64,000 bases of DNA from Nemertoderma westbladi. Taxonomy: Eukaryota; Animalia; Xenacoelomorpha. Shown here piece by piece: positions 1 through 56,669 of this stretch. The notes under the pieces were generated by a model. It made no database searches, was not told the DNA's origin, and saw only the letters and a program-made list of their open reading frames with translations. A program made the position numbers and the translations under genes. Numbering within the stretch: the stretch's first letter is position 1; the number at the start of each line of letters is the position of its first letter. Location: the NCBI GenBank assembly GCA_032718475.1, contig JAUCBJ010000091.1:1-64000 (forward strand), given 5' to 3'.

Positions 1-25
1 TGACAGATCTTATTATGTCAATAAA

Positions 26-1933: not shown

Positions 1934-3586
1934 CAACATATGGAGTGGGTGTGTGACTCTATTATTTTATATTATTTTATTATTTTTATATTTCTGTATG
2001 TATTACTATGTAATTTTATTATAATCGTTTTCTTTAATTTTATTCAGTAGAATGTTATTTTAGCGATTATTTAGTAGATTAGTGCAATATATATTCGCGT
2101 TTATTACTTAATTACGTATATATTATATTTAATGCGACGGCAAGAAATAATTCTTTTCCTCTTTCTTTACTGTCCGTATCATATTATAAATACGTGACTA
2201 CAGTAAGATGAAATGTCCGTACTTATTAAAGTACAATAAAGCCACTACTATATTTTAGTATTATTGGTAGGCAGAGTATTAGGAATGCAAAGTTCAGATC
2301 CTCGTGTCTCGGCTAAACCAAGCTCTGGGTAGACCTTGGAAACGACTTGCCTCTTCACACTGACATTGCTTCGTGCGATATTGCTCTCATACCGTATATT
2401 AAATAATACATATAGTAGCGTGATGTCCCTTTAACAGTAGCGTATAACGCAAAATAAATCTGTTAAACCCTTTGACCATCTGTAATTCTAGTCGATTAAG
2501 ATATCGTGGCACCCACCGATATACTTGAAAGACAAATTATAGAATCAGTGGTTAACGTCCCCAGACAAGTTCTGGAATAAATCGGTGCCCATCTCAAATA
2601 TTAATTATTTAATATTTGTAAATCTAATACGTCAAAATCTGTAAAATTTAGATCCTTTAACAATTCTAGTCGATTAAGATATCGTAGCATTTACCGATAT
2701 TCTTAAAAAAGACAATTGTCATAGAATTAAGGATCTTGTGTCCCTAGACATGTTCTAGAATCAAAATATGTCCATTTAATTATCAAATAATAAAATTTCA
2801 GGGAATAAATTTAAATTCATGCCTTTTAATGAATTTAATAAATTGCCATTTTTACGCAATTTATAAAGTTCCCAAAATTCCATTAATTAATAGATCAAGG
2901 GAGCGGAGATTTATCTTATCATGCGTATGAGTGTGTGAAAGTCTCCCAAACATAGTCAATAGCCGATAAAATTCATAAAGTCATGTATAACACAGAACAT
3001 TGACTATTAAAGAATTACTATTAAATAACATCCCAGATCTGTATGCATTGGAATCACCCTAATTCTACCGCTAGCTTTGCATAATGTCACCATAGCAACA
3101 ACCACGCTAGAATTAGAATTGAGTTAAAAGAACAATAGAAAGCTTGTCCCATTGAATAGCATAGGGAATAAATAGTGCACTGATAGTATCCAAGGATACA
3201 TAATAATACAGTGACATTCTGGAAGGCATTGACTAACAGACAAGTGACCCGAGTGTGTGTAATTTGTGACAAGTTGTGTGTGGTACTTGTGAGCTTATAG
3301 GCGAATGTTACTACTAAGGTGTGTTTACAGTAGCCAGTCGCAATCGTAAAGTAACCTAACTCTCCAAGGAAAACCTGAAGTACATCTAAGCCTTTGGGAC
3401 GGACAGTTGAGTGACTTGTGCCGGTTGTCGTTGTCGTTGTGCGGCTACGTCGTTGGCGAAAGTACAGCGGCGACGACACATCGGCGCTGAGGATCTCGTA
3501 CTGTCCGGGGGTTGATTGGGGTAGGCAGCGACGCCCGCTCGCCTAAATATAAACTCATTATAATGTGAATAAACTCATATATAGCA

Positions 3587-4667
3587 GATATGACGGAGTT
3601 GATAGAAGATGGTCTTGTCATCCTATCGATTTACACAATACGGACTATGTCGACTATATATCCTGCCCAGCGGAGTTGGAACCATAAACGGAAATTCAAA
3701 TGCGAAAATTCTATTCGAAATCGACTCGAAAGAAAAGACACTTAAGAAACAAATGGACGCGGTAACTCCAACGTATATTTGGAATTCTTGATAGAAGCAT
3801 TGTAACAACAAATAAATATCACCCGCGTTTACCCTACCAGACGTGCGTCTTTGGTATTATTACGATAAATGCCCTAGACCCAACTAATGAACGGAAAGAC
3901 ATAAACATCCACGTAAACCGAAACTTGTTGACGTATCACCTATGCTCACTCGGCTCGAACGATCCTGGAGTAAACCTACGATCAGAGTCCCGGAATACTC
4001 GGTCAAACCTCCTCATTCCTTAGTTGGACCTCAGACCTGCGATCTTGGTGGTGTCGCGGATCCTCGCGGACTGTATTCACTGTTCAAAGATCTAGTGCTA
4101 CCCTAACAATTAATCGGTAACACTCCGACAGTGATTTCTAGCTAGCCGCCCATCTTACCTAGCCGGATTGTGACGCGGACACCTAATATCACTATCCAAC
4201 CGTATGGTCGTCCACGTTTAACACGATACAACCCCTCATCAAGGGGAAGGAGAGCGTTGTACGAAACGAGTTAAACGCTATTTTATAAAGATCAAAAAGG
4301 AAACCTGCGTTTGTTCAGATAAACGTAAGTTATAACGGTGAGTCCAATCGATAAACGAATTGGCCTTATCTCAATTCGATTGGGAAATCCAGAATCTCTA
4401 AGAAGTTATCGAACTTGGACGATCCTATTCTCTGCGAGAGTTTTTGGATGAACGTATCCAGCTACGAGCGGAGGAAAATCAGCTCGAGGAGAAGCATATC
4501 GAAACGGTAGATACCTCGACCACAATCCTACACCTTCTGATGCAATCATATTGCACCCTTCACCCAGGAGTTATGGCCCTCCTAGTAAAGTGGCTCCCCC
4601 CAAAGAGAAAAAGACTCTTGCTAGCCTCAAAAAACTGCGTAAACGCCGTCTGCGTAAGAAAGACTAA
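3587..4667 (+). pseudogene. Internally deleted, stop-ridden relic of the accessory exonuclease ORF
   Basis: Patchy similarity to 38649..42907 (MTELIED start, ENSIRNRLER, DERIQLRAEENQLEE, KKLRKRR end). Confidence 0.85.
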
Positions 4668-4745
4668 CTGTTTAGAGTATCTTTATGTTTTAGAAACTGT
4701 GATTTTTATATTCTATAGACTGAAAATCCCATTTTCTGGGAGCGG

Positions 4746-5994
4746 TGTAAAAGCCTTTGCTGAATTGCCCCGTTATTTTTATTATCTTTTACATTAAAAT
4801 ACTCTGTAGTTGATTTAATAAGTGTAAGAGACCGTATTATTGCTGTATCGGTGTTTTTAGAGGATCTAAGACCTATTTCCTCCGTATGTGTACTGTGAAA
4901 GGCATATTTTATGAATCTATGGCAATTCGTGACGCAAAGGGGTGATAGCTACTCTTGAACAGTAGTTACTATGACTACGGTTAACAGCTGACATTCATAC
5001 GTGTTGATTTCCTTTGTTCTACGGCGTCTCTCAGTTCAGTCAGCCAATTAGAGCGTTTTTGTGGCTCCTTGTACAGAAAATTTCCGAGAAATGACGCAAT
5101 GCCTATGTGCAGTGTTTACATTCAGTCCTGAGCCAAAGAAAGAACGGCTTGGAAGTATTTTGTGCTTTACTGTTTTTTAGTCTTACACTAGTAGGTTTAA
5201 TTATAAAGGGCATATATCCTTTAACCTAACGACTACCTGACTCATGGAATCACCTGCTAACTGATCATACATACTGACTGCTGAAACATTGCAAACTCAT
5301 AACAATCAGTGTTTTCATTGTTGTTTTATACTGCTATTTACCGTCAGTTCTTCATAATATGGTTGATGAATAATTATATTTGGAATAACGATAAATATCC
5401 CCGAAACCCAATATTCTTGATATACCGAAGGTAAGAGAGAAGGGTTACAGATAAACGATTGTGACTTATGTTAAAGTGGTTTGAAGTGAATCTAATGTTA
5501 TTTGATAGACCCTACATGAGTCAGTCTGTGTTCCTTTTATATGTGACTAAAATCAGTGAAGATTGGCAGATTAGTGTGCAGTATTGTGCAGCATTGTGTA
5601 TGAGTGAGTCTGTTAAAGAAGCAATTCCTAAAGAATGCGCCATATATGTGAATTATAATTAAGCCATATCGTTGTGAGTAGTTTAAGTCATAACTCTGTT
5701 TATATAGATAAAGCGCCACGTCCTAAAGGAACTGTTAATATTACCGAAGGTGAATAATATTGTCAGAGATTATATAGTACTGTCAGTCGAATAATACATT
5801 AGGCTTACATAGCAATAAAATTAAACCGTCGAACCCAATCTCCCGGGAATATCCAGCGGGTGAATGGTCGCGCACGGATTGGTTTCGACTAGTGTAGTGA
5901 ATCAAATACTTGTCATAGACTAAAAACTGATTTAATATCTAGAAGACATCTTAATTTGGTGGGTTAAACTGCCAAAGGTCTGAAAGCGCGAACA
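4746..5994 (+). repeat. 3' LTR of subfamily B copy 1 (1249 bp)
   Basis: TG...CA ends; homologous to 23206-24472; preceded by TCCCATTTTCTGGGAGCGG as in the other 3' LTRs. Confidence 0.93.
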
Positions 5995-6614: not shown

Positions 6615-7160
6615 AGTGTTAGAAGGGTTAGTATAGGGAGAGTGCTAGAGAATAAGTATAGAATATTAGGAGGGTAGGTTAAAAAAGGGGGTGGGGGGGG
6701 GGGGGGGGGTGTGGGGTTGAGGTTGAGGTTGTGTTCTTACCTTACTTCTTATTGGTATTGCCCAAAAACGAGCGGCATATACCAAAAAAAACCCGTAAGA
6801 TTAAAAGTAATTATATATACGATATTATACACTAACTTATTGCTTTACTTCTTATTGGTAGCTTCTTACTGATAGCCAAGATAACAGCAGTAGAGATACC
6901 GGTAGCATAGAAACTAAAATGTACATAAAAAGTCAAAACAAACGGACATAATGAGTGATTTAAACGGACAACAATAGTTATTCTCTTTTAAAATCGACTG
7001 TACTGCTATAGGTTCATTGTATAGTACAGTAGTAGGCCTACAGTAGTACATTGTAGTACCGTCACAGACTGACAGACGCCACAGACGGTATCGGTACCTA
7101 TGTACCTGCTGCAGTGCTGATCTGTGGTTGTGATAAAATTGTACAAAGTGCAAAGTTAAC

Positions 7161-8894
7161 ATGTCCTTTACTAAACTCGACTCAAAAGATCTTCAAAAAG
7201 GGCGCGAGGAGCCCAAGAAACAATCTCGTTTGGAATGGAAACAGCAGAAAGAGTTGGAAGAGGCTCGGAAAGCGGGTACCGCGCCTGCAGAAGTGGACGA
7301 ATTCGGCCACGACATCAACCCACACATCCCCCATTACATAGTCAGCTCGCCGTGGTACCTCCAAGCAAATGGGCCCACATTAGAGCACCAACGTGCTTTC
7401 AAAACCGCACAACGACAGCGACCCACCGCAGTCTCAGAAGAGATAGTAAAAACTGGCTACCTTCCCGGAGGGAGCGCTACTAAATACCGCAAGGGGGCGT
7501 GCGATAACTGCGGCGCGATGACTCACAAAAAGAAAGATTGTCTGGAGCGTCCGAGGAAGGTTGGGGCGCGGTACACCGGTTCGTTTATAATGCCGGACGA
7601 GCGAGTACTTCCGTCGCAATCGTTTACGTTCGATGGGAAACGCGACAGGTGGTGCGGCTACAACGCAGCCGATTACAAGGCCGTCATAGAGGAACACGAG
7701 AAGGTCGAACTCGCTAAGAAACAGCTGAAATCGAAGCAACTCGAGGAAGAGTTGGTGCGAAGTGACGTCACAGTTAGTGATGACGTCGACGACGACAAAT
7801 ACGCCGACCACGCCGATATGCCAGGGCAGAAGTTCGACTCGAAGATTCGGATCACCGTTCGGAACCTGCGGATACGGGAGGACACCGCCAAGTACCTGAG
7901 GAATCTCGGGGATGGTTCGGCGCATTACGACCCCAAGACGCGCGCGATGCGAGAGAACCCGTACGAGGAGAGCGGTAGGGAGAAGGGCGACTTGGATTAC
8001 GCGGGTGATAACTTCGTGCGGTACTCCGGTACTACTCGGCAGATGGGGCGCGCGCAGTTATTCGCGTGGGAGGCGGCCGAGCGGGGCGTCGACGTTCACA
8101 TGGAGGGGGAGCCGACCCGAACCGCAATGGCCTTGCGGGAGTTCGAGGGGAGAGCCGGCCGCGCGGAAGAGGAGCGTAGAGAGCGAATCGTGGGGAAGTA
8201 CGGGGAATTAGGGGTGGAAGGGGAGCGCGGATTGCTGTTGGGACAGACGGAAGAGTACAGGGAGTACAGCAGGAGTGGGGCCGTGATAAAGGGAAGGGAT
8301 GTTGTTAAAGCGAAGTCGCGTTACGAGGAGGACGTTTACGTGAACAATCACAGTTCGGTTTGGGGTTCCTACTGGACAGGGTGTCTGTGGGGCTACCGGT
8401 GTTGCAGGTCGACCGTGAGGAACTCTTACTGCGTGGGGGGCAGTGCTATGGAGCCGGAACTGCCCCCTGGGGGGTTGGGGGAAGGAGGGGGGGTGACTGA
8501 GGAGGGGGGGTCCCAGGGGATAGTAGTCGGGGAGAACGATCCAGGAGGGGACAACACCGAGGATAAACCAAAGTCATTATTGGAACTTCATAAGCAGAAG
8601 TTATTAAACTTAAAAAAACAGAGTAAAAAAAGGAAAGTTAGCGGATCGTCGTCTAGTGATTCAGATTCGCCAAGTTGCAATAAGAAACTCCACAAGGGAG
8701 ACATTGAATCGGCGTTGCTACGACACGACATGGAGACCCGCAGAACGGAGGAGATAATCTCGATGGACGAGAGACAACGTCCATATAACTCTATGTACGA
8801 AACCCACCAACCCACACAGGCAGAACTCGAAGTGTTTCGGTTGAAGAGACACCAAAAGGAGGATCCTATGTTTAAATTATTAGATAATAAATAA
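7161..8894 (+). CDS. SLU7: Pre-mRNA splicing factor SLU7 (intronless)
   Basis: Motifs ELEEARKAGTAPAEVDE..INPHIP, KGACDNCGAMTHKKKDCLERPRK, VRNLRIREDTAKYL, SRYEEDVYVNNHSSVWGSYW. Confidence 0.97.
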   Translation: MSFTKLDSKDLQKGREEPKKQSRLEWKQQKELEEARKAGTAPAEVDEFGHDINPHIPHYIVSSPWYLQANGPTLEHQRAFKTAQRQRPTAVSEEIVKTGYLPGGSATKYRKGACDNCGAMTHKKKDCLERPRKVGARYTGSFIMPDERVLPSQSFTFDGKRDRWCGYNAADYKAVIEEHEKVELAKKQLKSKQLEEELVRSDVTVSDDVDDDKYADHADMPGQKFDSKIRITVRNLRIREDTAKYLRNLGDGSAHYDPKTRAMRENPYEESGREKGDLDYAGDNFVRYSGTTRQMGRAQLFAWEAAERGVDVHMEGEPTRTAMALREFEGRAGRAEEERRERIVGKYGELGVEGERGLLLGQTEEYREYSRSGAVIKGRDVVKAKSRYEEDVYVNNHSSVWGSYWTGCLWGYRCCRSTVRNSYCVGGSAMEPELPPGGLGEGGGVTEEGGSQGIVVGENDPGGDNTEDKPKSLLELHKQKLLNLKKQSKKRKVSGSSSSDSDSPSCNKKLHKGDIESALLRHDMETRRTEEIISMDERQRPYNSMYETHQPTQAELEVFRLKRHQKEDPMFKLLDNK

Positions 8895-9766
8895 AATCAT
8901 TGTTTATATGTTTTAACAACCATGAGATTGTATAAATTATTAAATAATTCAAACAGGACTTAGGATTCAATCCCCGCTGGTGGCGAATTCATTTTTTCCG
9001 CTCCATTTGCTATAGAGTTGGATCATCATTGTTTAATGTTTGTTTATATAACTTTGGGGGGAATATAATAATTATTAGATATCCAACAGTAAAGTTTACA
9101 AATTCTATACTATTAATTATAAATTTTATTCTATAATTTTAATTCTTAATTTGAAATTCTACAATCGAGGTTTTCAAATGAAACATATGTCATATTTGCA
9201 CTTCATTGTTCACTTTTATTTCTATTCCAACTACGCTTTAAGGGTATTCTTAATTCCAAAACTCGTGATATTGAGTATTATATTTATTTCTAATAGGATT
9301 AAAATTATTTAAAATACACTATACGTCATAGGCCTACTCAACTAAATAAATATACATATATATTTTTCTTTTTTTTCTATTTTTTATGTCTTGATGGTTG
9401 CTATGCATTGATTCACTTAGCATTAAACGCGTAATCTAATAATATCCTCAATTTTTTAACATAAGTAAATCTGAGCATACCTAACCTAACCGTAATCCTA
9501 AATAGACCTGAGCTAATTACGACAGAAACATCGCATATAAGTAATTAAACTATCTCTAGTTTGCTTGCAGGTTTTATCAAAACTAAAAGAGCCAATATGA
9601 GTAACTCAGTACTTTACTACGATTATTTTTACTAGAGCCCCTTGGAGCTGAACCTAAAATTGGTTAATATCTATTTATTAAATGGGAAACAATATAGATC
9701 GCGAAATTAGAGAAATAAGCTATTCATTTTTCAAATAATGGGCCTACCTAATTTTATTTCAGAAGA

Positions 9767-12171
9767 TTGCCTTTTCCACCTCCCCCTATTGCTTTCCCCA
9801 CCTCCCCCCTATTGCCTTTTCCACCCCCCCCCCCCCCCCCCCATTGCCTTTTCCACCTCCCCTATTGCATTTTCCACCCCCCCCCCCCTCCCCTATTGTA
9901 GGGATACCAAGAACTCGCCCCACTATGTGGCTCGCCCCAGCAGTGTAGTCATACCATGGATTCGCCTTACTACGTGGCTCGCCCCAGAACACAGACATTA
10001 CTTTCAGACATTAATCCGCTCAGTACTGTAGCACGTAGCCTACTTATGCACCTTGTCTGCATGATACCAGTACAGCACTGCAGTCTCTTGGTATTATATG
10101 TAGCACTGGTCGGTCAGATCTATTTCGGCATTTCCGCTCATCCCGCCCGGTCCCCTCATATCGCATATCCTTACACCTATTGCCTTTTCCACCTCCCCCC
10201 TATTGCCTTTTCCACCTCCCCTATTGCCTTTTCCACTCCCCCTATTGCCTTTTCCACCTCCCCCTTTTGCCTTTTCCACCTCCCCCCTATTGCCTTTCCA
10301 CCTCCCCCTATTGCCTTTTCCACCTCCGCCTATTGCCTTTTCCACCTCCCCTATTGCCTTTCCCACCTCCCCCATTGCCTTTTCCACTTACCCTATTGCC
10401 TTTTCCACCTCCCCCTATTGCATTTTCCCCCTCCCCCTATTGCCTTTTCCCCCTCCCCCTATTGCCTTTTCCACCTCCCCTATTGCCTTTTCCTCCTCCC
10501 CCTATTGCCTTTTCCACCTCCCCCTATTGCCTTTTCCACCTCCCCCTATTGCCTTTTCCACCTCCCCCTTTTGCCTTTTCCACCTCCCCCTTTTGCCTTT
10601 TCCACCTCCCCCCTATTGCCTTTCCACCTCCCCCTATTGCCTTTTCCACCTCCGCCTATTGCCTTTTCCACCTCCCCTATTGCCTTTTCCACCTACCCTA
10701 TTGCCTTTTCCACCTCCCCCTATTGCCTTTTCCACCTCCCCCTATTGCCTTTTCCACCACCCCCCTATTGCCTTTCCACCTCCCCGTATTGCCTTTTCCA
10801 CCTCCCCGCATTGCCTTTTCCACCTCCCCCTATTGCCTTTTCCACCTCCCCCATTGCCTTTTCCACCTCCCCTATTGCCTTTTCCACCCACCCTATTGCC
10901 TTTTCCACCTCCCCCTATTGCCTTTTCCACCTCCCCCTATTGCCTTTTCCACCTCCCCCCCCCTATTGCCTTTCCACCTCCCCGTATTGCCTTTTCCACC
11001 TCCCCGCATTGCCTTTTCCACCTACCCTATTGCCTTTTCCACCTCCCCCTATTGCCTTTTCCACCTGCCCTATTGCCTTTTCCACCTCCCCCTATTGCCT
11101 TTTCCACCTCCCCCTATTGCCTTTTCCACCTCCCCCTATTGCCTTTTCCACCTCCCCCTATTGCCTTTTCCACCTCCCCCTATTGCCTTTTCCACCTCCC
11201 CCCTATTGCCTTTCCACCTCCCCGTATTGCCTTTTCCACCTCCCCGCATTGCCTTTTCCACCTCCCCCTATTGCCTTTTCCACCTCCCCCTATTGCCCTT
11301 TCCACCTCCCCCTATTGCCCTTTCCACCTCCCCCTATTGCCTTTTCCACCTCCCTCTATTGCCTTTTCCACCTCCCCCATTGCCTTTTCCACTTCCCCTA
11401 TTGCCTTTTCCACCTACCCTATTGCCTTTTCAACCTCCCCCTATTGCCTTTTCCACCTCCCCCTATTGCCTTTTCCACCTCCCCCCTATTGCCTTTCCAC
11501 CTCCCCGTATTGCCTTTTCCACCTCCCCGCATTGCCTTTTCCACCTCCCCCTATTGCCTTTTCCACCTCCCCCTATTGCCCTTTCCACCTCCCCCTATTG
11601 CCTTTTCCACCTACCCTATTGCCTTTTCCACCCCCCCCCCCCCCCCCCTATTGCCTTTTCCACCTACCCTATTGCCTTTTCCACCTCCCCCTATTGCCTT
11701 TTCCACCTCCCCCTATTGCCTTTTCCACCTCCCCCTATTGCCTTTTCCCACCTCCCCCCTATTGCCTTTCCACCTCCCCGTATTGCCTTTTCCACCTCCC
11801 CGCATTGCCTTTTCCACCTCCCCCTATTGCCTTTTCCACCTCCCCCTATTGCCCTTTCCACCTCCCCCTATTGCCCTTTCCACCTCCCCCTATTGCCTTT
11901 TCCACCTCCCTCTATTGCCTTTTCCACCTCCCCCTATTGCCTTTTCCACCTCCCCCTATTGCCTTTTCCACCTCCCCCCTATTGCCTTTCCACCTCCCCG
12001 TATTGCCTTTTCCACCTCCCCGCATTGCCTTTTCCACCTCCCCCTATTGCCTTTTCCACCTCCCCCTATTGCCCTTTCCACCTCCCCCTATTGCCTTTTC
12101 CACCTCCCCCTATTGCCTTTTCCACCTCCCCCTATTGCCTTTCCACCTCCCCGTATTGCCTTTTCCACCTC
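9767..12171. repeat. C/T-rich minisatellite, about 22-bp unit TATTGCCTTTTCCACCTCCCCC
   Basis: Directly visible tandem array with variable C-run length and recurring variants (CCCGTATT, CCCGCATT). Confidence 0.97.
9897..10175. mobile_element. Solo LTR (279 bp) of an unrelated LTR element inserted in the minisatellite
   Basis: Ends TGTAGGGATA...TATCCTTACA (inverted, 1 mismatch), flanked by the 5-bp duplication CCTAT (9892-9896, 10176-10180). Confidence 0.8.
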
Positions 12172-12890
12172 ACTTTGCTCACCTTAAATATTGTACCAAA
12201 CAGCAGTGGTAAGATTCCGGGGTAACCATGTGTATTCATATAAACTTTGATTTTAGAAGGTTTGTAGTACCGGTAGACGTTGGCATTTCTGATGTACAGT
12301 ATAATACAGGGGTGGGATGCCCGATATACGATGCCCAAATACCAGAAATTAAACGAAATACTGTTACAATTATAATTATACTATGACTTGGTATATAATA
12401 TTCTCATATTGGCTTCCGACACACACTCACACTGACACCTACACGGACAGACTTGGAAAACGGCCATAGTATAATAATTTATTTAACTGACGACATGCCA
12501 ACTTTAGGGCGTTCATATTTACTTAATTGGATAATGGTAAATAGCCTGATTTGTTTTATACAGGGTACCTAGCAACGCCAACTGCCAACAGCTGGATTAA
12601 ATAGCAGTTGCCCTTAAAACAACTAGAGTCACTATTTCGGAAGCCCTTAAAACAACTAGAGGCACTATCCGGTAACACAGGGCCAGTGACCGAACAAACA
12701 AGCAGCAGTTAAATTGACTAACACTGTGGGGCAAGCCACGAAAGTGAGCGTGCTTAGAATACGGGTACCAATCTCAACCTCTCGTCTGTCTAACGTCTGC
12801 CTGTCGTTGGTTAGTCGCTCCGTCTACTCTTTGAATGCTAGTACAGTACAGTAACTCAGCGAATCTTTGATGGAATTATACCAAACGTAG

Positions 12891-14067
12891 TGTAAAAGCT
12901 TTTGCGTAATTAACCGGTTATTTTCCCGTAAAGTACTCTGTAGTTGGTTTACCAGGCATAAAAAGGCCGTGTCCTTACTGTACTGGTGTTTTAGAGGACA
13001 TAAAAGTCATTTCTTCTGTATTTGTACTTTAGAGGACATAATCCGCAATCTCGTGACGCAATAAGCTAGATACTCTTGAAAACAGTGTCGCTACCATGAC
13101 GACGGCTAACAGCTGATATTGCCACGTCGACATTTCTTTGTTTCTTTGTTCTCTCGTTGTTCGGTCGACCAATCAGAGCGTTTTTTGTCTCTGTGTTGGA
13201 GGTGGATACAGAAACTCAGTAGTTCAGTGTTATGTTTTTGCCCAGAGCCTAAGAACACCGGCTTTTGGCACCTCCGTGTTTCAGTCTTTAGCTTAACATT
13301 AGTAGGCTTAATTATAGAGTGTATATCTGTTATCATACCAAAACTCAGTTATCTCAGTTAATAATCATAACATATCAAAACAAACCGCATCATTCATACC
13401 TTAACTTTACTGCTTTTACTGTCGGTTATTCATTATATTTGTTGATGAAATATTATATCGGAATACTGATCAATAGTCAGACACCCAACCTTCTTGATAT
13501 ACTAAAGGTTAGAGAGACCGGTTACAGATAAACGATTGCGACCTATGTTAAGTGGTTTGAAGTGAATCTAATGCTATTTCATAGGCCCGACATAAATTGT
13601 ATGTTGCTCTCTTTATACGTGACCAAATTTAGTGAAGGTCGGCAGATTAGTGTGCAGTATTGTGCAGCATTGTGTATGATTGTAACTGATAACAAAGCAT
13701 CTCCTAAAGAATGCGCCATATACATAACTCTATAGCCTTTTTGTTGTGTCTAGTTTAAGTCATAACTCTGTTTACATATTTAGAGCGCCACGTCCTAAAG
13801 GAACTGTTAATATTTCCCGAAAGTGAATAATATTTGTCAGAGATTATATATTACGATCAGTCGAATAATACGGTAGGCTTACACCATCAATCATTAAGCT
13901 TCCGAATTCAGTCTCCCGGGTATATCCAGCGGGTGAATGATTGCGCATAGACTGGCTTCGGCTAATGTAGTGTATCAAATACTCGTCATAGGCTAAAGAC
14001 TATATATCATCTAAAAGACATCCTAATTTGGCAGGTTAAACTGTCAAAGGTCTTAAAAGCGCAAACA
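12891..14067 (+). repeat. 5' LTR of element A
   Basis: TGTAAAAGC...GCGCAAACA; direct repeat of 42986-44162. Confidence 0.97.
13167..13178 (+). promoter_or_regulatory. CCAAT box in LTR U3
   Basis: GACCAATCAGAG in A; AGCCAATGAGAG at the homologous position in B. Confidence 0.55.
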
Positions 14068-14105
14068 ATAACAGATATTGCTTCTGGATTGCGGCGTAAG
14101 CAATC
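13283..14105 (+). ncRNA. Large structured cis-RNA in LTR R/U5 plus PBS (putative self-priming module, possible ribozyme)
   Basis: Many helices with compensatory changes between the A and B LTRs (see findings). Confidence 0.75.
14068..14078 (+). promoter_or_regulatory. Non-tRNA primer-binding site complementary to LTR 13323-13333
   Basis: ATAACAGATAT directly abuts the LTR end; its exact reverse complement ATATCTGTTAT is at 13323-13333; no TGG tRNA-type PBS. Confidence 0.85.
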
Positions 14106-14356
14106 AAGTCTAAAGTACCGGTACCGGTCGAACGGTAACCTGTACTGCTGTAACCAGTAGGCCTGACTGCCTGATCATCCGAACCGGTACTTACAGTACA
14201 GGTACAGCAGTATTATTCGATTGTGGTATTGTATACCGGTAGGCTGTTTAAGAGATTAGGGACTGTACACCCCTTGTTTCTTTTGGGAGCTTACTTATTT
14301 CTGTCAGTTTTATTTATTTGTAGGCCAGTATTGAGCAGAAGGCGTGTAAGCCTGCT

Positions 14357-14934
14357 CAGATTGTACAGATAATTTGTAGGCTTGACTGTTGGCTAACTGT
14401 TGTTAAGTCTGAACAGATTGCAGTGTGTGTAGAGCATCTGTCCGATAAAGTGCTAGTTAGGAAAGTAGGGGCTTCAAGTGCTGTGAGGTAAACCCCCTGT
14501 GAAAGAATAAGTCGTACTACTGGGTTAGAATGCATACTAACTAATCATTTCGGAGTCTGCATATACTGTAGTGTATTTGGGCTTGATAGTAGTCTGCCAT
14601 CGTTTGGTCTGTACTTTGTTTGTGTAGTCTGTACGGGTAGCGTATAATTTTATTTAGATAATTTGTAGGCTGGATAGTTGTTTGGCTGTTGTTGGGTTTG
14701 AGGAAATTTCGGTGTGTGTAGAGCATCTGTCCGATAAAGTGCTAAGTTAGGAAAGTAGGGGCTTCAAGTGCTGTGAGGTAAACCCCCTGTGAAAGAATAA
14801 GTCGTACTACTGGGTTAGAACGCATACTAACTAATCATTTCGGAGTCTGCATATACCGTAGTTTGTTTAGGCTTGATAGTAGTCTGTCAGTATTTGGTCT
14901 GCATTTTGTTTGAATAGTCTGTACGCGTAGCGTA
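14357..14934 (+). repeat. Two tandem copies (period about 289 bp) of a structured 5' leader module
   Basis: Direct repeat 14367-14644 / 14656-14934; also duplicated in B at 24740-25301. Confidence 0.85.
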
Positions 14935-16282
14935 ATATTTATTATTCAGAGTTTATGCGATTATTCGCAACATTCATTCCCCAAGTTTATTCCTACAGTA
15001 ATTGTGTTTGTTATACATACCGTTATAGTTAAACTAACCCCGGTACTACATCAGGGCTGCTCGGCGTAGGTAAAGACTGGAGATTTTATGCTTTGGTCAC
15101 TCCGGCAGATACCGTGGTTCTTTTAGCTGTTCAAGTATTTTTAACTACCGATTATTTGTTGTACAAGTACTTGTACCTAATTTAGGGTTTAGTGTACAGT
15201 ACTTTCCGAAGGTGATTAGTGTGTAGGCAGTGTATTTGTGTTGTAAAGTGGTTAATAGGCACGTTGGTTCTGGTAGACCGCGGTAATTAATCTCTAGGTA
15301 GGAACACTCCGTGATACATAACGTAGTACCTATAGCGATACGGTTATAGGTCGTCAGGCGGTGGTATTTTCCTATCTGGACAACGCAGTATATTTACTAC
15401 TACTTATTATTTTCAAATACCGTAGTAACCTGTCCGTTGTAATAACCAGATATTCTAACCCTTTGTTAGGCTGGTTAGTAGACTTCTTGTAAAAATACCC
15501 TAAAAAATTTGTATTTGTGTATTTGTAATTAAATTTTTGTGTTTATTTAGAGATTGTAATCTCTACCCGAATTGTACGTAACTTGTAGTATTAAGTAACT
15601 TAGGTAAATTAGAATTATTTGTTTTAGTGTCTAACAAGTAGCACTCCACTGAGAGCGCACAGCTTATGTGTAGTGACTCCCCCAGAAATAATAACATTTA
15701 TTTCAAACATTGACAAAAACCCATTTCAACGGGTATATATATATTATAAATCAACTCAAACGATTTATAAATAGTAGGCCTGCCATACAACAATTAGGTC
15801 TCAATATCAGTTGGACTACTGCTTAAATAACAGTAATAAAGTAAGTTAAAGTAACCAAGTAACCCTTAAAATTCAGAAATTCAATTATTTAAAATAATTG
15901 ATATACCGGTATTTACAATAGGCTTACTATCTTTATTTTTATAAATATAGGCTGAAATTATACCGGTATTCTGTAATTAATTCTAGTCTGTAATTGTACT
16001 TGTATTTTCACATTATAAGTGTAAGCTGTATACCGGTATTCAAGATAGGCCTATTATATATATAAACTTAGGCTGAAATAATACCGGTATTCTGCAATTA
16101 ATTCTAGTTACTAATAATACTTATATATACTATAAGCATACCGGTATTCTAATATTATATATATATCACGCTACACTGAGTAGCAGTATCGGTAATTAAT
16201 TACTAGGTTAGCAGTTAATGCTGAATTACTAGACTTGCTTAGACTGTAATATAGCAGTAGGCATTCAACTGTGTAAACAAAC

Positions 16283-19200
16283 ATGTCTGATACTAAGCAG
16301 AACCTGTCAGACAGTTTATTAGATGCAACTATCTGCGACTCAGATAAGGGTGTAGAACCGTCTACACCTAAGTTCAGTTCACCTCCCACTGTGAGGAAGG
16401 TCATCCCTCCAGTAGTAATAACAGAACCTAGGCTGGTCCAACATCGTAGGTCTATCATAGGCACTCGAGCTCAGGTCAAACGGGACCAAGAAGCAGCGGA
16501 ACAGCAACAACCCACGAGCCAAGAACTTATTTCTCAGCGGCCCGACAGCTCCAGTAGTGAGGATCTTGTAGAGCTGACACCCGAGCGCGGAGCAAAGATG
16601 ACGGATGCGGTTTATTCGGATCCCCTTCTCATCCTGCCTGCAGCCGTACTCACTAGGATATTGATCGCGGTGGAAGAACACCAGATCGATTGGGCGAGAA
16701 GTCAGCAATCAACTAAAGATAGTTATGCGGGATACACAAAGGAAGAACTGAAATCTATTGTCGAGTCGCAATGGAACTTCCCCGGACCCGGACTCCCGTT
16801 TGATTTATCAGAAGCTGCCTGGGAAGACATACACCGGATGGGAGTAGCCAAAGAAACCATCGATCCAGCTGTGTGGAAGAGGTCCGCAGCCGGATACGCA
16901 CAGGGATTCTTCAGCTCTATGGAGCGACTAAAATAACAACTGTTTCAACAACCACAAGGACCTCAAGAGCAGGGACAACTGCTTTATCAAGTTAGAGAAA
17001 GAATTCTGCGAATCAAGCTAATCTTATCGGCCTTTGAAGAGGCTTCTAAAAGAAGACAAGACACGTCGTTGCAAGTTGCCGTAAAGACTTGGTTTCAGCG
17101 GGTGAGTCTCCAGGTTCAAGGAACGGCTCAGTGGAAAGCTCAGCTAGAGGAGCGCTCAACCCATGGAGAATCAACAGACGCTACTTTTTCCCAAGTGGAA
17201 AGTGAAGCGACGGCAGAGAACCCGCATAAGAGGGATGCCATTGATATCTATCTGTCAGACTATCAACGTTTCTTAGGTGATGAAGAGTTGAGGAGAAGGT
17301 TGGATGGACTTAACCCTAATAGTGAAGGAGCACAGCGTGTGCTGGATGCCATCGACGTGGATAGGTTAGCGGCGAACCAAGCTAAATTCGATGAACAACT
17401 CCGCATCGCTAGAGTCCAAGAAGAACAGGTGAAGAAAAAACGTATAGAAGACAGAAAGAAAGCAACAGTAGCAGCTGCGGAAGCGGAAAGGAAAGCAGCC
17501 GAAGAGGAAAGTAAAGCAGCCGAAATGGAAAGAAAAGCGGCAGTGGCAGCGGCAGCGGCAGCGGCAGAGGCAGAAGCGAAAAGAAAAGCAGCTGAAATGG
17601 AAAGAAAAGTGGCAATGGCAGCGGCAGAAGCAGAGCGGATAGCGGCTGAAGAGATCGCCCAATTAGAATTGGAAAATATTCAGGAGAATCAAGACTGCAT
17701 AAATAAACAGTTAACAGCTAGTAATATGCAGATGATAAATCGATCTACTCCCAAAAGACAGGGATATACATCATCTGAGGAAGGCGATACCACCGATACT
17801 GAAGGCAAAGGAAATAGATCTCACCTAAGCAGACGTAAAAGAACATCCCACCGTCAGAAATTGCCTGATTTGCCTCCAGCTGTTAGAAGGCAACTAAATA
17901 ACACCAACTTGGGTAGTACAGAACCCACAGACCAAATAATTACAATAGAAAGACTCCCTACTATAGTAGATGAGCCTGAAATAATTAGGCCTGTTCTCGA
18001 AGCCACCCTTTCAGTGGTAGAGACACCTGTACTCCCTGAACCTACCTCTAAATTCCCTTTGCACAGTACCAAGCTACCTGTGCCCAGCAGAACAGCCCAT
18101 GAGACAGTTCATGCCCTGGACCCCGAGCGAAATATTCATGATTTGTCGCCCGTTGTCCCTCGTCCGCCCGCTACAACGTTGGCGAATCCCGCTTCGGCGG
18201 TCGAATGGGTGGATGAGAGACGACGGGGGATGGATCTCCTGCTCGGACAGATGCAGGAGACTGTTCAGCAATTCAAGGGCACAGTAAGGGAAAGTAGGTT
18301 AGAGTTGCAAGAAGTGCAGCAAAGTATCGCGCTAGAACGCGATAAATTAGTAAATACACAAAAGGGTATACCACCACCCCCTGTAACAATGTGTCAACCT
18401 GTTAGGTCTGAAGTATCTCATGCGCAAGGTGTGGACCCTACACGCATCTATACTGCTAGCGAAGTAGAAACTCCTATAGTGAACCCTATTAAGGGTAATT
18501 ATAGACCTGTTGATAATGATATTCCCTATAGACCGGATCATAATCCGAGAAATTTATATACCGATAACTCGATATTAAATAACACGATGGCCCAAGAAAG
18601 TTTTACGCGTCAAATGGCTAGAACCGAAGCCCGGCAAGCGGTAAAGGTGGGAGAGATCGTCAAGTTCAATGGAGATGAGATGAAATGGTTACCTTTTAAT
18701 GAATATTACAAAGATAACATACAGAACTCTGTACTATCTAATGGAGAGAAACTTAGATTCCTCATCGAGTGCTTGGAAGGATCTCCCAAGTTAATGGCGT
18801 TAAAGTTTATTGGACATCCAGATGGATTAAGACAAGTTTGGGATACACTAAACATCAGGTATGGTAATAGGAATAACATAGCTGGGTATTTGTATGCAAA
18901 GTTGGTAGCGCCCCGAAAGTTTATTAGCAGCGGGATTATAGAGTTTTCCGATGAGATTCAGGAGATCTGCAGACAATTAGATTGGCTAGGTAAGTCTCAT
19001 GAGTATCAGAGTGCTATGGTTATTAGAGCAGTGGCTTCTACTTTACCGAAGGGTGGAGTAGGTACACGCTGGGATAAGAAAGTGTTATATATGATGGAAC
19101 AACAACGACGAGACCCTACCATGGCTGATCTCATGTCATTCCTAGATGGAGAAGTGAAATTACAGCTCCTAAAACTGTCCAGAGAGAAGACCCCGGAAAA

Positions 19201-19726
19201 CAAGGTAAGTGAAAAACCCGTCTCTAGGAGAAAGGTAACACCGGTGTGTTATACAGACGACGGCGAAAACCAGACTTCTCAAGGAGAAGATAGCGGGAAA
19301 GACACTGACAGATCTTATTATGTCAATAAAATGCCTAAAGATCAGGTAAGTAAATTCAAGTCTCGAACTAATGACAGGAGAGAACAGGTAAGAAAAACTC
19401 CTCCTACGTCTCCCAAGAGAATTCAGGTGAGAAAGCCCGAAGAAAAAACAAGTGTGCACAATGTTACGCAAAATAAGGTAAGTAACATCAAACCGAAATG
19501 TGCGCTATGTGATGGGACCCATCGCTTGAATACGTGTGATGAATTCCTAAAGAAATCATTAACTGAGAGACGTGAAGTCATGTGGGATAAGCGGTTGTGT
19601 TATAATTGCCTCAGACAAGGACACCAACGGCGAACCTGTTACTCTGACACAAGATGTGCCAAGTGCGGTGCGAAACATCATGTCTTGTTGCACACTGAAT
19701 TCGGCGAAATAGTCCGAGTCAGGTAA
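16283..19726 (+). CDS. Gag of element A (in-frame TAA at 16934-16936, then frameshift relative to pol near 19705)
   Basis: ORFs 16283..16936 and 17069..19726 are in the same frame and colinear with B Gag; KFNGDEMKWLPF (DUF1759-type capsid region) and three Cys-His boxes. Confidence 0.88.
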
Positions 19727-19857
19727 GTGATTCCAAATTACATGTCCAATTCAGTGATGTGAATGACACTGATCAATCTGAGATGGAAGGATTCTATACG
19801 GACGAGTTCTCCGACGAAAACGAATCCTATTACATGATAAATACCACAGTGTATTGA

Positions 19858-22800
19858 GCACTCACGTATGAAAAGGATACGGACAGCGACCTTACCCTAG
19901 CTACTTCTGATCAACAACCATTTTGGAAAGCGCCAACTTCCAATGTAGGGATTAGAGAATTTCCTGTGGTACAGGTAAGGGTCCACGGACCAAAAAGGAA
20001 TTATGTAGTGAACGCCCTCCTTGACTCCGGTAGTACAGGAACATTCATCGACAAAGAGCTAGCCGAAGACATATTTGCTGGACAACCCAAGTTCCGAACT
20101 AAGCTAAACATGTCAGGAATTATGCAGGTTTGGAAATCTACAGTAACAGCGGATTATTATGTAGGTGCGTTGTCCACCCCCCAGGATGAACTAGGAGAAC
20201 ATAGCATAAGGTCAGTGAAAATGGTGGCTATAAAGAACTTCGCTACTACTCAAGCAGACCTTTATAATTGGGACGAGGATGAGAGCATCCAACATCTTAA
20301 GATACCTCGATTCCAGACTGATTATCCTGGAGTGCAAATACTCATCGGCCAAAACGCGCATGAGGCGCTCGAGACACTGGAGAAACGGCCTGCTCAACCG
20401 CAGCCACTACAAACCTATGCGGTAAGAACTAGAGTAGGTTGGTACTTTACTGGCCCTTCCCGTAGAACTCTCATGGAAAGATTACCGAAAGATCAGGTAT
20501 ATCAAGTGCGAGAATGGGAAGTTGAGAACAGTGAGTTCGACGATCCAACTGAGGGAACTCCATACTCCTCAGACAACGACGATATACATCAACTTTTCGA
20601 TGAGGAGAATGCCATCGATCTCCTTAAGGAAAGCGAGACTTGGCAAAATCAAGTGAACTTATGTCAACTCCTTCTCCCATCCGAGCGAGACGACTATAAC
20701 GACGAGCTTAATGACGTCATTGAACGTTATAATGCCAAGACTCGGGATGAACACGCCGTAAGATTCTTTACTCAAGAGGTTGTAGAGCCCAACTCCTACG
20801 ATAAGGCCCTATCGGTGGAGGAAGAAAGAGCCAAGCAGATCCAAGCGACAACTACTCGTTTTCTTAAAGATCAAGGTAGATATGAGATCGGTCTTCCTTT
20901 CCGAAAGCGAGAACCAAAGTTCATTAACAACAGACCTTTGGCGGAGAAAAGAATTGCTCAACTACATCGACGCCTTACGGCAAATTCTTCAGCTAAAGAA
21001 ATGTATCAAACGCAGTTGAAGAAGTTTATTAGTAAGGGATATGCGGAGCTAGTACCGGAAGAAACACCTATAACTGAGAGAACGTATTATTTAACTCACC
21101 ATTACGTTCCCAAACCCGGTAAACCCCATGAAGTACGAGTGGTGTTTGACGGTTCCGCCCTTTATATGGGCCAATCTCTTAATTCTGAATTGTTACCCGG
21201 ACCCAACTTACTAGAATCCTTGTTCGGAATACTATTAAGATTAAGACAATATTCCATTGCTTTCGCCTCAGATATAGAAGGCATGTTCTTACAAGTCAAA
21301 GCGCTGGATAGGGATCGAGATAGCCTACGATTTTTGTGGTGGCCTGAAGGAGACCTCAACAAGAAACCGGTGGAGTACTGGATGACCATCCAAGCCTTTG
21401 GGATAATCTCGAGCCCTTCAAACGCCTGTTCCGTGGTGCGCACCACTGCGGATGACAACCGAGACGCCTTCTCTAAAGAGGTGATCGACAATATCAAACG
21501 AAACATCTACATGGACGATAATCTGAAGTCCCTTCCATCAGTCGAAGAAGCCACTGCGGTCGCTGAAGGAACGGTAGAATGCTTAAAGAAAGGTGGATTT
21601 CGATTAACTAAATTCACTAGCAACTCCCGTGAGTTTCTGGAGTCGATCCCGGTAGAAGATCGAGGAGCAAAAGACCTAGATCTAATAAAGGATGATCTCC
21701 CAGAAACTAAGACCCTTGGTTTGAAATGGGACACAGAAAGAGATATCCTGTTTTTCCAATTAAAACAGCGAGATAATCCAGTTCGGACTAAACGGATTTG
21801 TTTAAGTATCCTGAGCACTTATTTCGATCCATTGGGATTTATTAGCCCAGTTATATTGATTGCTCGGAGTTTAGTACAACAAATGTGGCTTGAAAACCAC
21901 TCATGGGACGATCCACTTAAGGGAGAATTATTAAAGAAGTGGATGAAATGGGAAGATTCTCTACCAGCCATCGAAAACTTTATAATTTCCCGTTCATATT
22001 TTGGTCATGTTCTCCCTACGTATTCATATCAACTCCATGTGTTTGGAGACGCCAGCGATATGGGAATAGGTATAGTAGCCTACCTAAGGGTGGAAACTCC
22101 GGACGGAATCAAAGTCGCCTTGATTACCTCTAAGGCATTGATAAACAACAAGTTGAAGGTTCCTCGAGCGGAGTTAAAAGCGGCTCTATACGCTACAGCC
22201 ATCGGCCGGAATGTAACAGAACAGATCGACTATCCCCTGGAGAAAACTGTCTATTGGACCGACGCTTTACTCGTGTTGGAGTATATAACCAATGAAGTCT
22301 GTCAGTTCAGCGTCTTCGTTACCAACAGAGTAGCTATTATACTCAGTCGCACGACGATGGATCAATGGAGACATTGCCCCGGAACGATTAATCCAGCGGA
22401 CATCGCTTCCAGGGGAGCAACTCCACAAGAACTGGTAGATACTCCAGACTGGTTAGGTGGACCCGACTTCCTCTACAAAGAAGAAGAAGAATGGCCTCCT
22501 CATCTTACTACAGCAGAAATTAGACAGGCCAAGGGAGCGGAGAAAGTCAAGCCTAAAACTCAGGCGAGTAAATCGAAGTTATTCAAACCCACAGTAGATC
22601 TGTCTGTCCTACATACTTCCGGAGACGACGCTTTGGATCAGAAACCCACAGCCACAAATAAACCCGTTGTGGAAATCCGTGATAAGGATTGGAAATCTGG
22701 CATACCAGACGTCTCGCAAGGACTCTCACCTCTTCTGCAGAGAGCGATACATCACTACAGTTCCTGGAATCGGCTCTGTAAGGCCGTTACATATTTAAAG

Positions 22801-23205
22801 AGATGTTTTCACCATCACTACTCTGGGATGAAAACAAAGGGTGATACCGCTCCAATCACATCAGTGCAGGTCCATGTTATTAAAGATCTTCCCAAACATA
22901 AGATACCCGACAGGTTTCTGAAGGAGAAGATCAGTTATCAGGAGCATGAAGAAACCAACAAACAGATGCTGAGACTCTTACAATGCTATGAAGATTCCGA
23001 TAAGTATTTCCTGTTGTTGAGAAATCCACAGATGCGCTTAAGGGATCGTTTCTCTAGCACAAGGATAGATGGGTTGATACGTGTTGGAGGAAGGTTAACG
23101 AATGCCCCATTATCCTTTGATACTAAGTTCCCCATACTCATTAGAAATCTTGAAATACAAGTCAAGATGATTGTAGATGTTCACAGCAAACTTTATCATG
23201 CTGGT
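19858..23205 (+). CDS. Pol of element A: protease, reverse transcriptase, RNase H, start of integrase (interrupted by nested element)
   Basis: ALLDSGS; VRVVFDGS, SLNSELLPGPNL, DIEGMFLQV, YMDD; FDPLG, FGDAS, VPRAEL, WTD, NPADIASRG. Confidence 0.95.
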
Positions 23206-24472
23206 TGTAAAAGCCTTTGCTGAATTGCCCCGTTATTTTTATTATCTTTTACATTAAAATACTCTGTAGTTGATTTAATAAGTGTAAGAGACCGTATTAT
23301 TGCTGTATCGGTGTTTTTAGAGGATCTAAGACCTATTTCCTCCGTATGTGTACTGTGAAAGGCATATTTTATGATTCTATGGCAATTCGTGATGCAAAAG
23401 GGTGATAGCTACTCTTGAACAGTAGTTACTATGACTACGGTTAACAGCTGACATTCATACGTGTTGATTTCCTTTGTTCTACGGCGTCTCTCAGTTCAGT
23501 CAGCCAATGAGAGCGTTTTTGTGGCTCCTTGTACAGAAAATTTCCGAGAAATGACGCAATGCCTATGTGCAGTGTTTACATTCAGTCTTGAGCCAAATAA
23601 AGAACGGCTTGGAAGTATTTTTTGTGCTGTACTGCTTTTTAGTCGTACACTAGTAGGTTTAATTATAAAGGGCATATATCCTTTAACTGTAAATATCTCA
23701 CTGCTGCAATTTAACATACCTAACGAATACTGCTGACTGATGATCATACATGCTGACTGCTGAAACATTGCAAACTCATAACAATCAGTGTTCAGTAGTT
23801 ATTTTATACTGCTATTTACCGTCAGTTCTTCATAATATGGTTGATGAATTATTATATTTGGAATAACGATAAACAACCCCGAAACCCAATGTTCTTGATA
23901 TACCGAAGGTAAGAGAGAAGGGTTACAGATAAACGATTGTGACTTATGTTAAAGTGGTTTGAAGTGAATCTAATGTTATTTGATAGACCCTACATGAGTC
24001 AGCCTGTGTTCCTTTTATATGTGACTAAAATCAGTGAAGACTGGCAGATTAGTGTGCAGTATTGTGCAGCATTGTGTATGAGTGAGTCTGTTAAAGAAGC
24101 ATTCCTAAAGAATGCGCCATATATGTGAATTATAATTAAGCCATATCGTTGTGAGTAGTTTAAGTCATAACTCTGTTTATATAGATAAAGCGCCATGTCC
24201 TAAAGGAACTGTTAATATTACCGAAGGTGAATAATATTGTCAGAGATTATATAGTACTGTCAGTCGAATAATACATTAGGCTTACATAGCAATAAAAATT
24301 AAACCGTCGAACCCAATCTCCCGGGAATATCCAGCGGGTGAATGGTCGCGCACGGATTGGTTTCGACTAGTGTAGTGAATCAAATACTTGTCATAGACTA
24401 AAAGCAGATTTAATATCTAGAAGACATCTTAATTTGGTGGGTTAAACTGCCAAAGGTCTGAAAGCGCGAACA
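23206..24472 (+). repeat. 5' LTR of B copy 2 (1267 bp)
   Basis: TGTAAAAGCC...GCGCGAACA; matches 4746-5994 and 34402-35048. Confidence 0.95.
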
Positions 24473-24484
24473 TTAAAGGATATA
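24473..24484 (+). promoter_or_regulatory. Non-tRNA primer-binding site complementary to LTR 23675-23686
   Basis: TTAAAGGATATA versus TATATCCTTTAA, 12/12 complementary. Confidence 0.85.
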
Positions 24485-31592: not shown

Positions 31593-33245
31593 CAACATAT
31601 GGAGTGGGTGTGTGACTCTATTATTTTATATTATTATTATTATTTTTATATTTATGTACGTATTACTATGTAATTTTATTATAATCGTTTTATTTAATTT
31701 AGTAGAATATTATTTAGCGATTATTTTGTAGAATAGTGCGATATATTCGTGTTTATTACGTACGTCATTACTTATATTATATTTAGTGCGACGGCGAAGA
31801 GATAATTACTTTTCTCTTTCCTTACTGTCCGTATTATACTATAAATACGTAACAACAGTAAGATGAAATGTCTGTACTTATTAAAGTACAATAAAGCCAC
31901 TACTATATTTAAGTATTATTGGTAGGCAGAGTATTAGGAATGCAAAGTTCAGATCCTCGTGTCTCGGCTAAACCAAGCTCTGGGTAGACCTTGGAAACGA
32001 CTTGCCTCTTCACACTGACATTGCTTCGTGCGATATTGCTCTCATACCGTATATTAAATAATACATATAGTAGCGTGATGTCCCTTTAACAGTAGCGTAT
32101 AACGCAAAATAAATCTGTTAAACCCTTTGACCATCTGTAATTCTAGTCGATTAAGATATCGCGGCACCCACCGATATACTTGAAAGACAAATTCTAGAAT
32201 CAGTGGTTAACGTCCCCAGACAAGTTCTGGAATAAATCGGTGCCCATCTCAAATATTAATTAATTAATATTTGCAAAATCTAATAAATCAAAATCTGTAA
32301 AATTCAGATCCTTCAATAATTCTAGTCAATTAAGATATCGTAGTATTTACCGATATTCTTAAAAAGACAATTGTCATAGAACTAAGGATCTTGTGTCCCC
32401 AGACATGTTCTGGAATCAAAATATGTCCATTTAATTATCAAATAATAAAATTTCAGGGAATCAATTTAAATTCATGCCTTTTAATGAATTTAATAAATTG
32501 CCATTTTTACGCAATTTATAAAGTTCCCAAAATTCCATTAATTAATAGATCAAGGGAGCGGAGATTTATCTTAGCATGCGTATGAGTGTGTGAAAGTCTC
32601 CCAAACATAGTCAATAGCCGATAAAATTCATAAAGTCATGTATAAAACAGAACATTGACTATTAAAGAATTACTATTAAATAACATCCCAGATCTGTATG
32701 CATTGGAATTACTCTAATTCTACCGCTAGCTTTGCATAATGTCACCATAGCAACAACCACGCTAGAATTAGAATTGAGTTAAACTAACAATAGAAAGCTT
32801 GTCCCATTGAATAACATAGGGAATAAATAGTGCACTGATAGTATCCAAGGATACATAATAATACAGTGACATTCTGGAAGGCATTGACTAACGGACAAGT
32901 GACCCGAGTGTGTGTAATTTGTGACAAGTTGTGTGTGTGGTATTTGTGAGTTTATAGGTGAATGTTACTGCTAAGGTGTGTTTACAGTAGCTAGTCGCAA
33001 TCGTAAAAGTAACCTAACTCTCCAAGGAAACCTGAAGTACATCTAAGCCTTTGGGACGGACAGTTGAGTGACTTGTGCCGGTTGTCGTTGTCGTTGTGCG
33101 GCTACGTCGTTGGCGAAAGTACAGCGGCTACGACACATCGGCGCTGAGGATCTCGTACTGTCCGGGGTTGATTGGGGTAGGCAGTGACGCCCGCTCGCCT
33201 AAATATAAACTCATTATAATATGGATAAACTCATATATAGCAGAT

Positions 33246-34323: not shown

Positions 34324-34401
34324 CTGTTTAGAGTATCTTTATGTTTTAGAAACTGTGATTTTTATATTTTATAGACTGAAAATCCCATTTTCTGGGAGCG
34401 G

Positions 34402-56617: not shown

Positions 56618-56669
56618 TTTGACAAGGTTATTGATAAGTAATTACTATTCTTACTGCTGTCTGGCTGTA

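Follow-up and report, generated by a model that had tools for sequence, protein, structure and literature searches.

Reverse transcription of element A, a BEL/Pao retrotransposon in the 64,000-nt stretch of DNA that was analyzed (the window), is quite probably primed by the element's own RNA. A mature tRNA primer requires a primer binding site (PBS) that starts with TGG. This start is absent both from A and from the related element B, which favors tRNA-independent priming. The PBS of each element is complementary to a segment of its own LTR, the resulting duplex is flush with the LTR boundary and covaries between the two elements, and the same signature recurs in relatives that lack TGG. Thus, self-priming without tRNA, as proposed in the initial annotation of the window, is the best reading of the data. 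Judged by its sequence, A is likely to be a variant of a known self-priming mechanism in a superfamily that is defined as tRNA-primed.

Organization of the elements

The window contains three related LTR elements (A, B and C) amid host open reading frames. The principal features are as follows.

12891–44162, + strand: element A, with an LTR pair and the target site duplication (TSD) CGTAG on both flanks
12891–14067, + strand: 5′ LTR of A, 1177 bp, TG...CA, 99.7% match to 42986–44162, TSD CGTAG
16277–19726, + strand: gag region of A, with DUF1759 and zinc knuckles and an in-frame stop near 16936
19858–23223, + strand: pol of A, with protease, reverse transcriptase (RT; YMDD at 21508) and RNase H (Peptidase_A17), located after a frame break and cut by the insertion of B
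35044–37008, + strand: integrase region of A (H2C2, DUF5641)
42986–44162, + strand: 3′ LTR of A, preceded by a purine-rich tract, with a primer copy at 43418–43428
23206–35048, + strand: element B, a derivative that has lost the RT and integrase cores to deletion and has a truncated 3′ LTR
23206–24472, + strand: 5′ LTR of B, 95% to the 3′ LTR of C at 4746–5994
1–5994: element C, with its 3′ LTR at 4746–5994

On the sequence evidence A is a young BEL/Pao retrotransposon, its two LTRs showing three differences over 1177 bp. The proteins of A comprise BEL/Pao Gag/Pol domains in the order PR-RT-RH-IN (DUF1759, Peptidase_A17 with E 1.8e-36, Integrase_H2C2 and DUF5641). The closest RT-RNase H homologues are of BEL/Pao type, share the same domains and are 37–45% identical, with those that are named deriving from marine invertebrates and fish. 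Element A also has motifs of RT and RNase H, from which the corresponding activities are predicted. The gag-pol region is broken at three places: near 16936, near 19726–19858, and by B.

Elements B and C are 96.6% identical over their common part, and both lack the cores of RT and integrase as well as the greater part of ORF2. The identical internal deletions in C (1–5994) and B (23206–35048) suggest that an RT-less form was amplified. Element B is flanked by two identical 773-bp copies of the pol of A (22433–23205 and 35048–35820), and its left LTR end is precise, with the 3′ LTR cut at position 647. This arrangement may reflect aberrant integration, a template switch or an assembly artefact.

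Complementarity between PBS and LTR in elements A and B

The pairing partners in the two elements are located as follows.

14068–14078, + strand: site of the PBS in A, directly adjoining the LTR end (offset 0) and without TGG
13323–13333, + strand: putative self-primer of A, exact complement of 14068–14078
24473–24484, + strand: site of the PBS in B, likewise at offset 0 and without TGG
23675–23686, + strand: putative self-primer of B, complement of 24473–24484, identical sequence also in C (5213) and in the 3′ LTR piece of B (34871)

The initial annotation had reported that TGG is absent after the 5′ LTR of A and that the sequence there pairs perfectly with the LTR interior, which a complement search bore out. 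The primer of A is contiguous and lies 734 nt upstream of the PBS, and in A and B alike the match is the sole one of its length within the element's own LTR. Also upheld were the abutment of the duplex on the LTR boundary, with offset 0 in both elements, and its retention in B through three compensatory changes. Eight of the 11 pairs are unchanged between A and B, all three changed pairs are compensatory, none is broken, and the duplex of B is longer by a 12th pair. The terminal pair, which adjoins the CA of the LTR, is among the three that changed. This core covariation consists of two linked primer-PBS pairs, those of A and B, as the PBS of C lies beyond the window. The PBS letters differ at four of 12 positions between these close subfamilies. 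The pairs native to each element have energies of −16.1 (A) and −20.2 (B) kcal/mol, whereas the cross-pairs are weaker (−9.6 and −8.8 kcal/mol).

Complementarity of at least 11 bp to the preceding 1177 nt occurred at 12 of 8371 window positions (0.0014), and of at least 12 bp at seven of 8371 (0.0008). With a laxer null in which offsets and splicing were allowed, p was 0.017 for A and 0.010 for B. The primer-PBS feature is real and exceeds chance. The matched changes may have been copied from primer to PBS in a single round of replication rather than selected three times. Such copying would explain them under self-priming, but would render them non-independent. A primer built by splicing was rejected for both A and B: the best junction gives 8 bp, and the best match is contiguous with no GT-AG intron there. 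ARAGORN detected no tRNA genes in the window.

Self-complementary primer binding sites in relatives

A search with an RT profile provided 80 metagenome loci (the best 80 of 571) and 37 genome-bin loci. A repeat flanked the RT in 42 of these 117 loci, of which 24 were examined by hand and four were dropped because the repeat stopped short of the LTR end; the LTR ends of L080 and L106 were placed by eye. Of the 20 loci kept, seven showed TGG no more than 7 nt from the LTR, and 13 did not. Self-complementarity was assessed at offsets of 0–5 with an optional GT-AG junction, using 300 random interior positions per locus as the null.

A self-complementary PBS of 10–15 bp was evident in 12 of the 13 loci without TGG (p at most 0.013 each), but in none of the seven with TGG (p at least 0.55). 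The single failure among the non-TGG loci was L085 (p 0.156). Three locus pairs are near-copies, which gives a family-level count of about nine of 10. The supposition that the signature is peculiar to A did not survive. Instead, the sequences indicate that a self-complementary PBS is a trait of a lineage and not a one-off.

In 11 of the 12 positives (L019, L030, L032, L033, L040, L068, L071, L080, L083, L084 and L106) the primer spans a splice junction in the LTR, with an LTR intron of 67–451 nt, donors of GTAAG-, GTGAG- or GTACG-type and pyrimidine-rich acceptors. The match in the remaining locus, L058, is contiguous like that of A. Comparison of L083 with L084 revealed matched changes on both sides of the splice junction, and the PBS varies freely among the relatives while matching its own LTR in each positive. 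In a blind scan, run without a null, of seven further loci for which the LTR end is unknown, the junction ranked first in six and second in one, with two of the seven duplicating counted loci. Among the 13 non-TGG relatives, six possess a TATA consensus 122–220 nt upstream of the primer and 12 a poly(A) hexamer within the 3′ part of the LTR, which lies 1–94 nt past the primer in 11 of the 12 positives. Purine tracts were located in eight circular loci.

The 37 loci L081–L117 sit in bacterial or archaeal genome bins, although BEL/Pao elements are known from animals; host contamination is the most likely source. An LTR pattern search of metagenome and viral contigs produced no matches, and the RT profile search of viral contigs disclosed no relative. 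The BEL/Pao family of the window is very diverse in the contigs compared, which came from four of seven runs (11,100 contigs in one run).

Phylogeny and number of origins

RT trees were constructed with 109 rows (quick) and 38 rows (careful), neither of which included a gypsy sequence. The non-TGG relatives form one supported clade (97 in the quick tree, 100/97 in the careful tree), the sister of which is a group that holds the TGG elements L023 and L057. A long branch (96/91) places element A outside this clade and its sister, and other TGG elements are more distant still. An AU test in which A was constrained into the non-TGG clade did not reject this placement (p 0.083). Within BEL/Pao the sequences may therefore reflect either one origin, with A misplaced, or two. 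An origin separate from Tf1 is likely on the basis of the different superfamily and the TGG-type BEL/Pao elements on the RT tree. This independence follows from the superfamily assignment, as both the domains and the homologues are BEL/Pao. The independent origin claimed in the initial annotation is thus likely with respect to Tf1, but self-priming had already been predicted in a second superfamily, for TAR/Houba in copia (PMC6317226, in the part available).

Position of the primer in the RNA and predicted folds

The following features flank the primer of A or are predicted to pair in its vicinity.

13169–13173, + strand: CCAAT box kept in A, B and C, with a putative promoter role, 154 nt upstream of the primer
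13301–13310, + strand: upstream arm, predicted pairing with leader 14347–14356, one compensatory and one broken pair of 10
13315–13322, + strand: predicted continuation of the primer:PBS duplex on its 5′ side with imperfect pairing, bringing the total to 18 bp in A and 21 in B
13718–13739, + strand: arm within the LTR that, by prediction, masks the primer region, covering all of the primer in B and C and its 5′ half in A
13785–13871, + strand: U5-side arm of a long predicted stem, partner leader 14210–14345, crossing the primer:PBS duplex as a pseudoknot
14210–14356, + strand: leader arms, predicted pairing with U5 and the upstream arm

Motifs of TCAGT type are present at 13216 and 13224. No TATA consensus was found upstream of the primer in A or B, nor any A(A/T)TAAA in the LTR of A, so the U3/R/U5 borders are guesses. 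Transcription typically begins about 30 nt from a TATA box, which, for the six relatives with an upstream TATA consensus, would place the primer 90–190 nt into the RNA.

The primer:PBS duplex of A and B reaches 7–9 imperfect pairs 5′ of the core. Folding programs miss this duplex because it is part of a pseudoknot. In the predicted folds the PBS is mostly unpaired and enclosed by the long U5-leader stem, of which 45 of 50 pairs are unchanged between A and B, three are one-sided, one is broken, one is a gap and none is compensatory. This stem, kept in both elements, invites comparison with Tf1, in which a U5-leader stem reportedly lies beside the PBS. In folds of the LTR alone, with the leader absent, an in-LTR helix forms over 13303–13326. 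Other leader windows score as well as the PBS with the primer region of A. The predicted structures, from two or three sequences, suggest an RNA switch that frees the primer in the 5′ copy only.

The initial annotation cited covarying helices upstream of the primer as grounds for an internal primer. Comparison by automatic alignment of the two sequences A and B lent this partial support: the 13301–13310 arm has one matched change, but also the broken pair, and the helix 13282–13295:14377–14388 is mostly one-sided or broken (one compensatory, five one-sided and three broken pairs of 11). Neither do these helices prove an internal location, as the 3′ LTR copy of the RNA carries the same sequence and the covariation is thin. 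On sequence grounds, an internal primer is plausible.

Formation of the primer 3′ end and ORF2

The initial annotation further held that an internal primer demands an extra processing step. This does not follow, since the primer of Tf1 is itself freed when RNase H cleaves the RNA between bases 11 and 12 (PMC7175516, in the part available). An internal primer therefore needs no new enzyme, and a longer 5′ tail changes nothing in this respect. A first-step spliceosomal cut was rejected as the source of the 3′ end, there being no GT after the primer in A or C. An Rfam scan of 12800–16300 identified no ribozyme; two sub-threshold tmRNA matches were taken as chance.

38616–42464, + strand: ORF2 of A, encoding 1282 aa, weakly similar to RNase D near 41040–41180 and with zinc knuckles at the C terminus

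The RNase D-like domain of ORF2 may be a candidate trimming enzyme. Profile matches of ORF2 all fell below cut-offs (TIGR01388, E 0.017; PRK10829, E 0.038; PDB RNase D, E 1.3; zf-CCHC_3, E 0.016), and Pfam gave no match for the RNase D-like domain of the window's ORF2. Only two distant homologues were recovered among 1.84 billion representatives, one of which, P0121, matched DNA_pol_A_exo1 at E 0.2; a search for further homologues of P0121 was negative. The structure model of ORF2 was unusable (pLDDT 31). No ORF2 match was observed in the 117 related loci, and the domain is absent from B and C. Thus, trimming by ORF2 cannot be general. A role of ORF2 in priming, or in countering small-RNA defence by the host, is conceivable.

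Proposed mechanism and alternatives

The best single mechanism, to which we assign slightly more than an even chance, is an internal primer from the 5′ copy that is cut by RT. The start of transcription would lie roughly 100 nt upstream of the primer. Within the 5′ LTR copy, pairing of the leader with U5 and with 13301–13310 would present the PBS, 13323–13333 would anneal to it, and cleavage of the RNA after 13333 would follow, probably through the RNase H activity of RT by analogy with Tf1. RT would extend the primer into U5 and then jump to the 3′ R. In the 3′ LTR copy, where the leader is absent, the primer would be masked by the in-LTR helix. The RT-less elements B and C would rely on this cis structure too, RT being provided in trans.

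A self-primer furnished by the 3′ LTR copy, or in trans by a short RNA of the LTR alone, and trimmed at its 3′ end back to the duplex, a step that the RNase D-like domain in ORF2 may perform, is an unlikely alternative. Relatives that require splicing for the primer yet retain the intron in their DNA fit a separate primer RNA, and the poly(A) hexamers shortly after the primer in the positives and the weak RNase D-like matches in ORF2 point in the same direction. Were the cap-proximal intron spliced preferentially, the intron would likewise be retained. Moreover, ORF2 is unmatched in the 117 loci, the domain is missing from B and C, and its matches lie below curated cut-offs. A start at or just before the primer (about 13315–13323), as in Tf1 where the first 11 bases prime (PMC7175516, in the part available), with the upstream helices confined to the 3′ LTR copy, is a little less probable again. 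The in-LTR helix over 13303–13326 in LTR-only folds agrees with such a start, but the matched change of the 13301–13310 arm with the leader, the TATA boxes of relatives far upstream of the primer and the CCAAT box 154 nt upstream argue against it.

The primer of A contains letters that, by eye, we take to resemble the anticodon loop of tRNA-Asn. The pairing might be structural, serving packaging, dimer formation or a translation switch, while a host tRNA fragment or another RNA primes, a reading whose probability we judge fractionally lower still. tRNA priming is given for the family by ICTV (PMC8742986), and half-tRNA primers are known in copia (PMC6317226, in the part available). Against this, the PBS differs at four of 12 positions between close subfamilies and freely among relatives yet matches its own LTR, a tRNA primer offers no route by which the LTR could be copied, and the duplex is flush with the LTR end. 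The AT-rich composition of primer and PBS and the laxer nulls (p 0.010–0.017) leave room for chance complementarity, but its recurrence at the same place in two subfamilies with three of three matched changes (about 1/165 x 1/27 by our own arithmetic) and the disparity among relatives (12 of 13 versus none of seven) make chance highly improbable.

An extension of the internal-primer mechanism would be a wide, undescribed, tRNA-free BEL/Pao lineage in which the primer is activated only in the 5′ LTR copy, through splicing in the relatives and leader-triggered refolding in A, with A maybe a second origin that maybe has its own RNase D-like primer trimming; in this full form the proposal is doubtful.

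Comparison with known systems

For the Belpaoviridae, ICTV describes an 18-nt PBS for tRNA-Arg or tRNA-Gly, host-tRNA priming and a length of 4.2–10 kb (PMC8742986), in agreement with the statement in the initial annotation that BEL/Pao elements are described as tRNA-primed; BEL/Pao replication is called poorly understood in the same source. Element A is alike in its LTRs, gag followed by PR-RT-RH-IN, purine tract, BEL/Pao Pfam domains and animal host, but unlike in the absence of a PBS for tRNA-Arg or tRNA-Gly, its length of about 18.7 kb without the B insert, and a third ORF with no env match.

The available parts of PMC7175516, PMC4600332 and PMC6317226 indicate that, like A, Tf1/Tf2 of S. 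pombe, Tj1 of S. japonicus, and Tf1/sushi and Tcn1 of Ty3/gypsy have no tRNA PBS, and that in Tf1-type elements, as in A, the PBS is paired with a stretch of about 11 nt from the LTR RNA of the element itself and a cut must make the 3′-OH. A PBS complementary to the element's own LTR over at least 10 bp beside the LTR end, as expected of Tf1-type self-priming, is found in A and B. The PBS of Tf1 begins ATAAC, as does that of A, which probably is coincidence, and about half of Tf1 cDNA retains a single-stranded DNA end of PBS length (PMC11042837, in the part available). A differs from Tf1 in superfamily (BEL/Pao), in the position of its primer, which precedes the PBS by 734 nt and is probably internal, unlike the first 11 nt used by Tf1, in its 1.2-kb LTR and in the extra ORF2. 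Unlike Tf1/sushi, A is not of the Ty3/gypsy chromovirus RT lineage, as its domains and homologues are BEL/Pao, the tree having no gypsy row.

In its available part, PMC6317226 lists self-priming for Tf1/sushi and Tcn1 and as a prediction for TAR/Houba in copia. For the TAR lineage (Houba, Osr-1) of plant Ty1/copia elements, the same part specifies LTR-PBS complementarity of at least 10 bp situated 0–5 bp after the LTR, a rule that A and B fit, but these are copia elements of plants in which self-priming is prediction only. The splice-junction-primer clade of BEL/Pao elements in public contigs is like A in having no TGG and a self-complementary PBS of 10–15 nt near the LTR end; A differs in its contiguous primer without intron, located far from the LTR end, and in its RT, which is outside the clade on a long branch. 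In the BEL/Pao survey PMC3118150 the terms tRNA, primer, PBS and self do not occur, and the available parts of PMC3601003, PMC5443660, PMC4600332 and PMC13524379 do not mention BEL/Pao self-priming. No paper on BEL/Pao self-priming or the splice-junction-primer clade was found in a search of literature outside Repbase entries, supplements and most subscription journals.

If self-priming in A is true, it would extend to a third LTR superfamily and to animals beyond the sushi group. Elements of this kind would be freed from constraints that the supply of host tRNA imposes, and would be overlooked or wrongly labeled by annotation tools in which a tRNA PBS is mandatory. As an internal primer is present in both LTR copies of the RNA, the question arises how one copy alone is used, which is less sharp for the end-located primer of Tf1.

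Other features of the window

The 2.2-kb leader of A (14068–16283) includes a duplicated 290-nt block (14367–14950) and short repeats (15902–16166). Splicing between a donor-like site at 13510, of which B has a stronger counterpart at 23912, and a conserved acceptor-like site at 14323 could remove the PBS. Outside the LTR elements, a C-rich 22-nt tandem repeat occupies about 2.4 kb at 9766–12225. The host genes SLU7, XRCC4 and an RBM26/27-like gene (7137–8894, 49454–50449 and 53903–56641, respectively) each consist of one uninterrupted ORF, which is unusual for an animal; the name RBM26/27-like is our reading of the PWI, CCCH and RRM domains in that ORF. SLU7 matches homologues in many animals at about 45–57%, a range that favors no single animal group. 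The region 45984–48734 harbors a non-LTR retrotransposon in fragments, with RT pieces and, by eye, an endonuclease-like piece.
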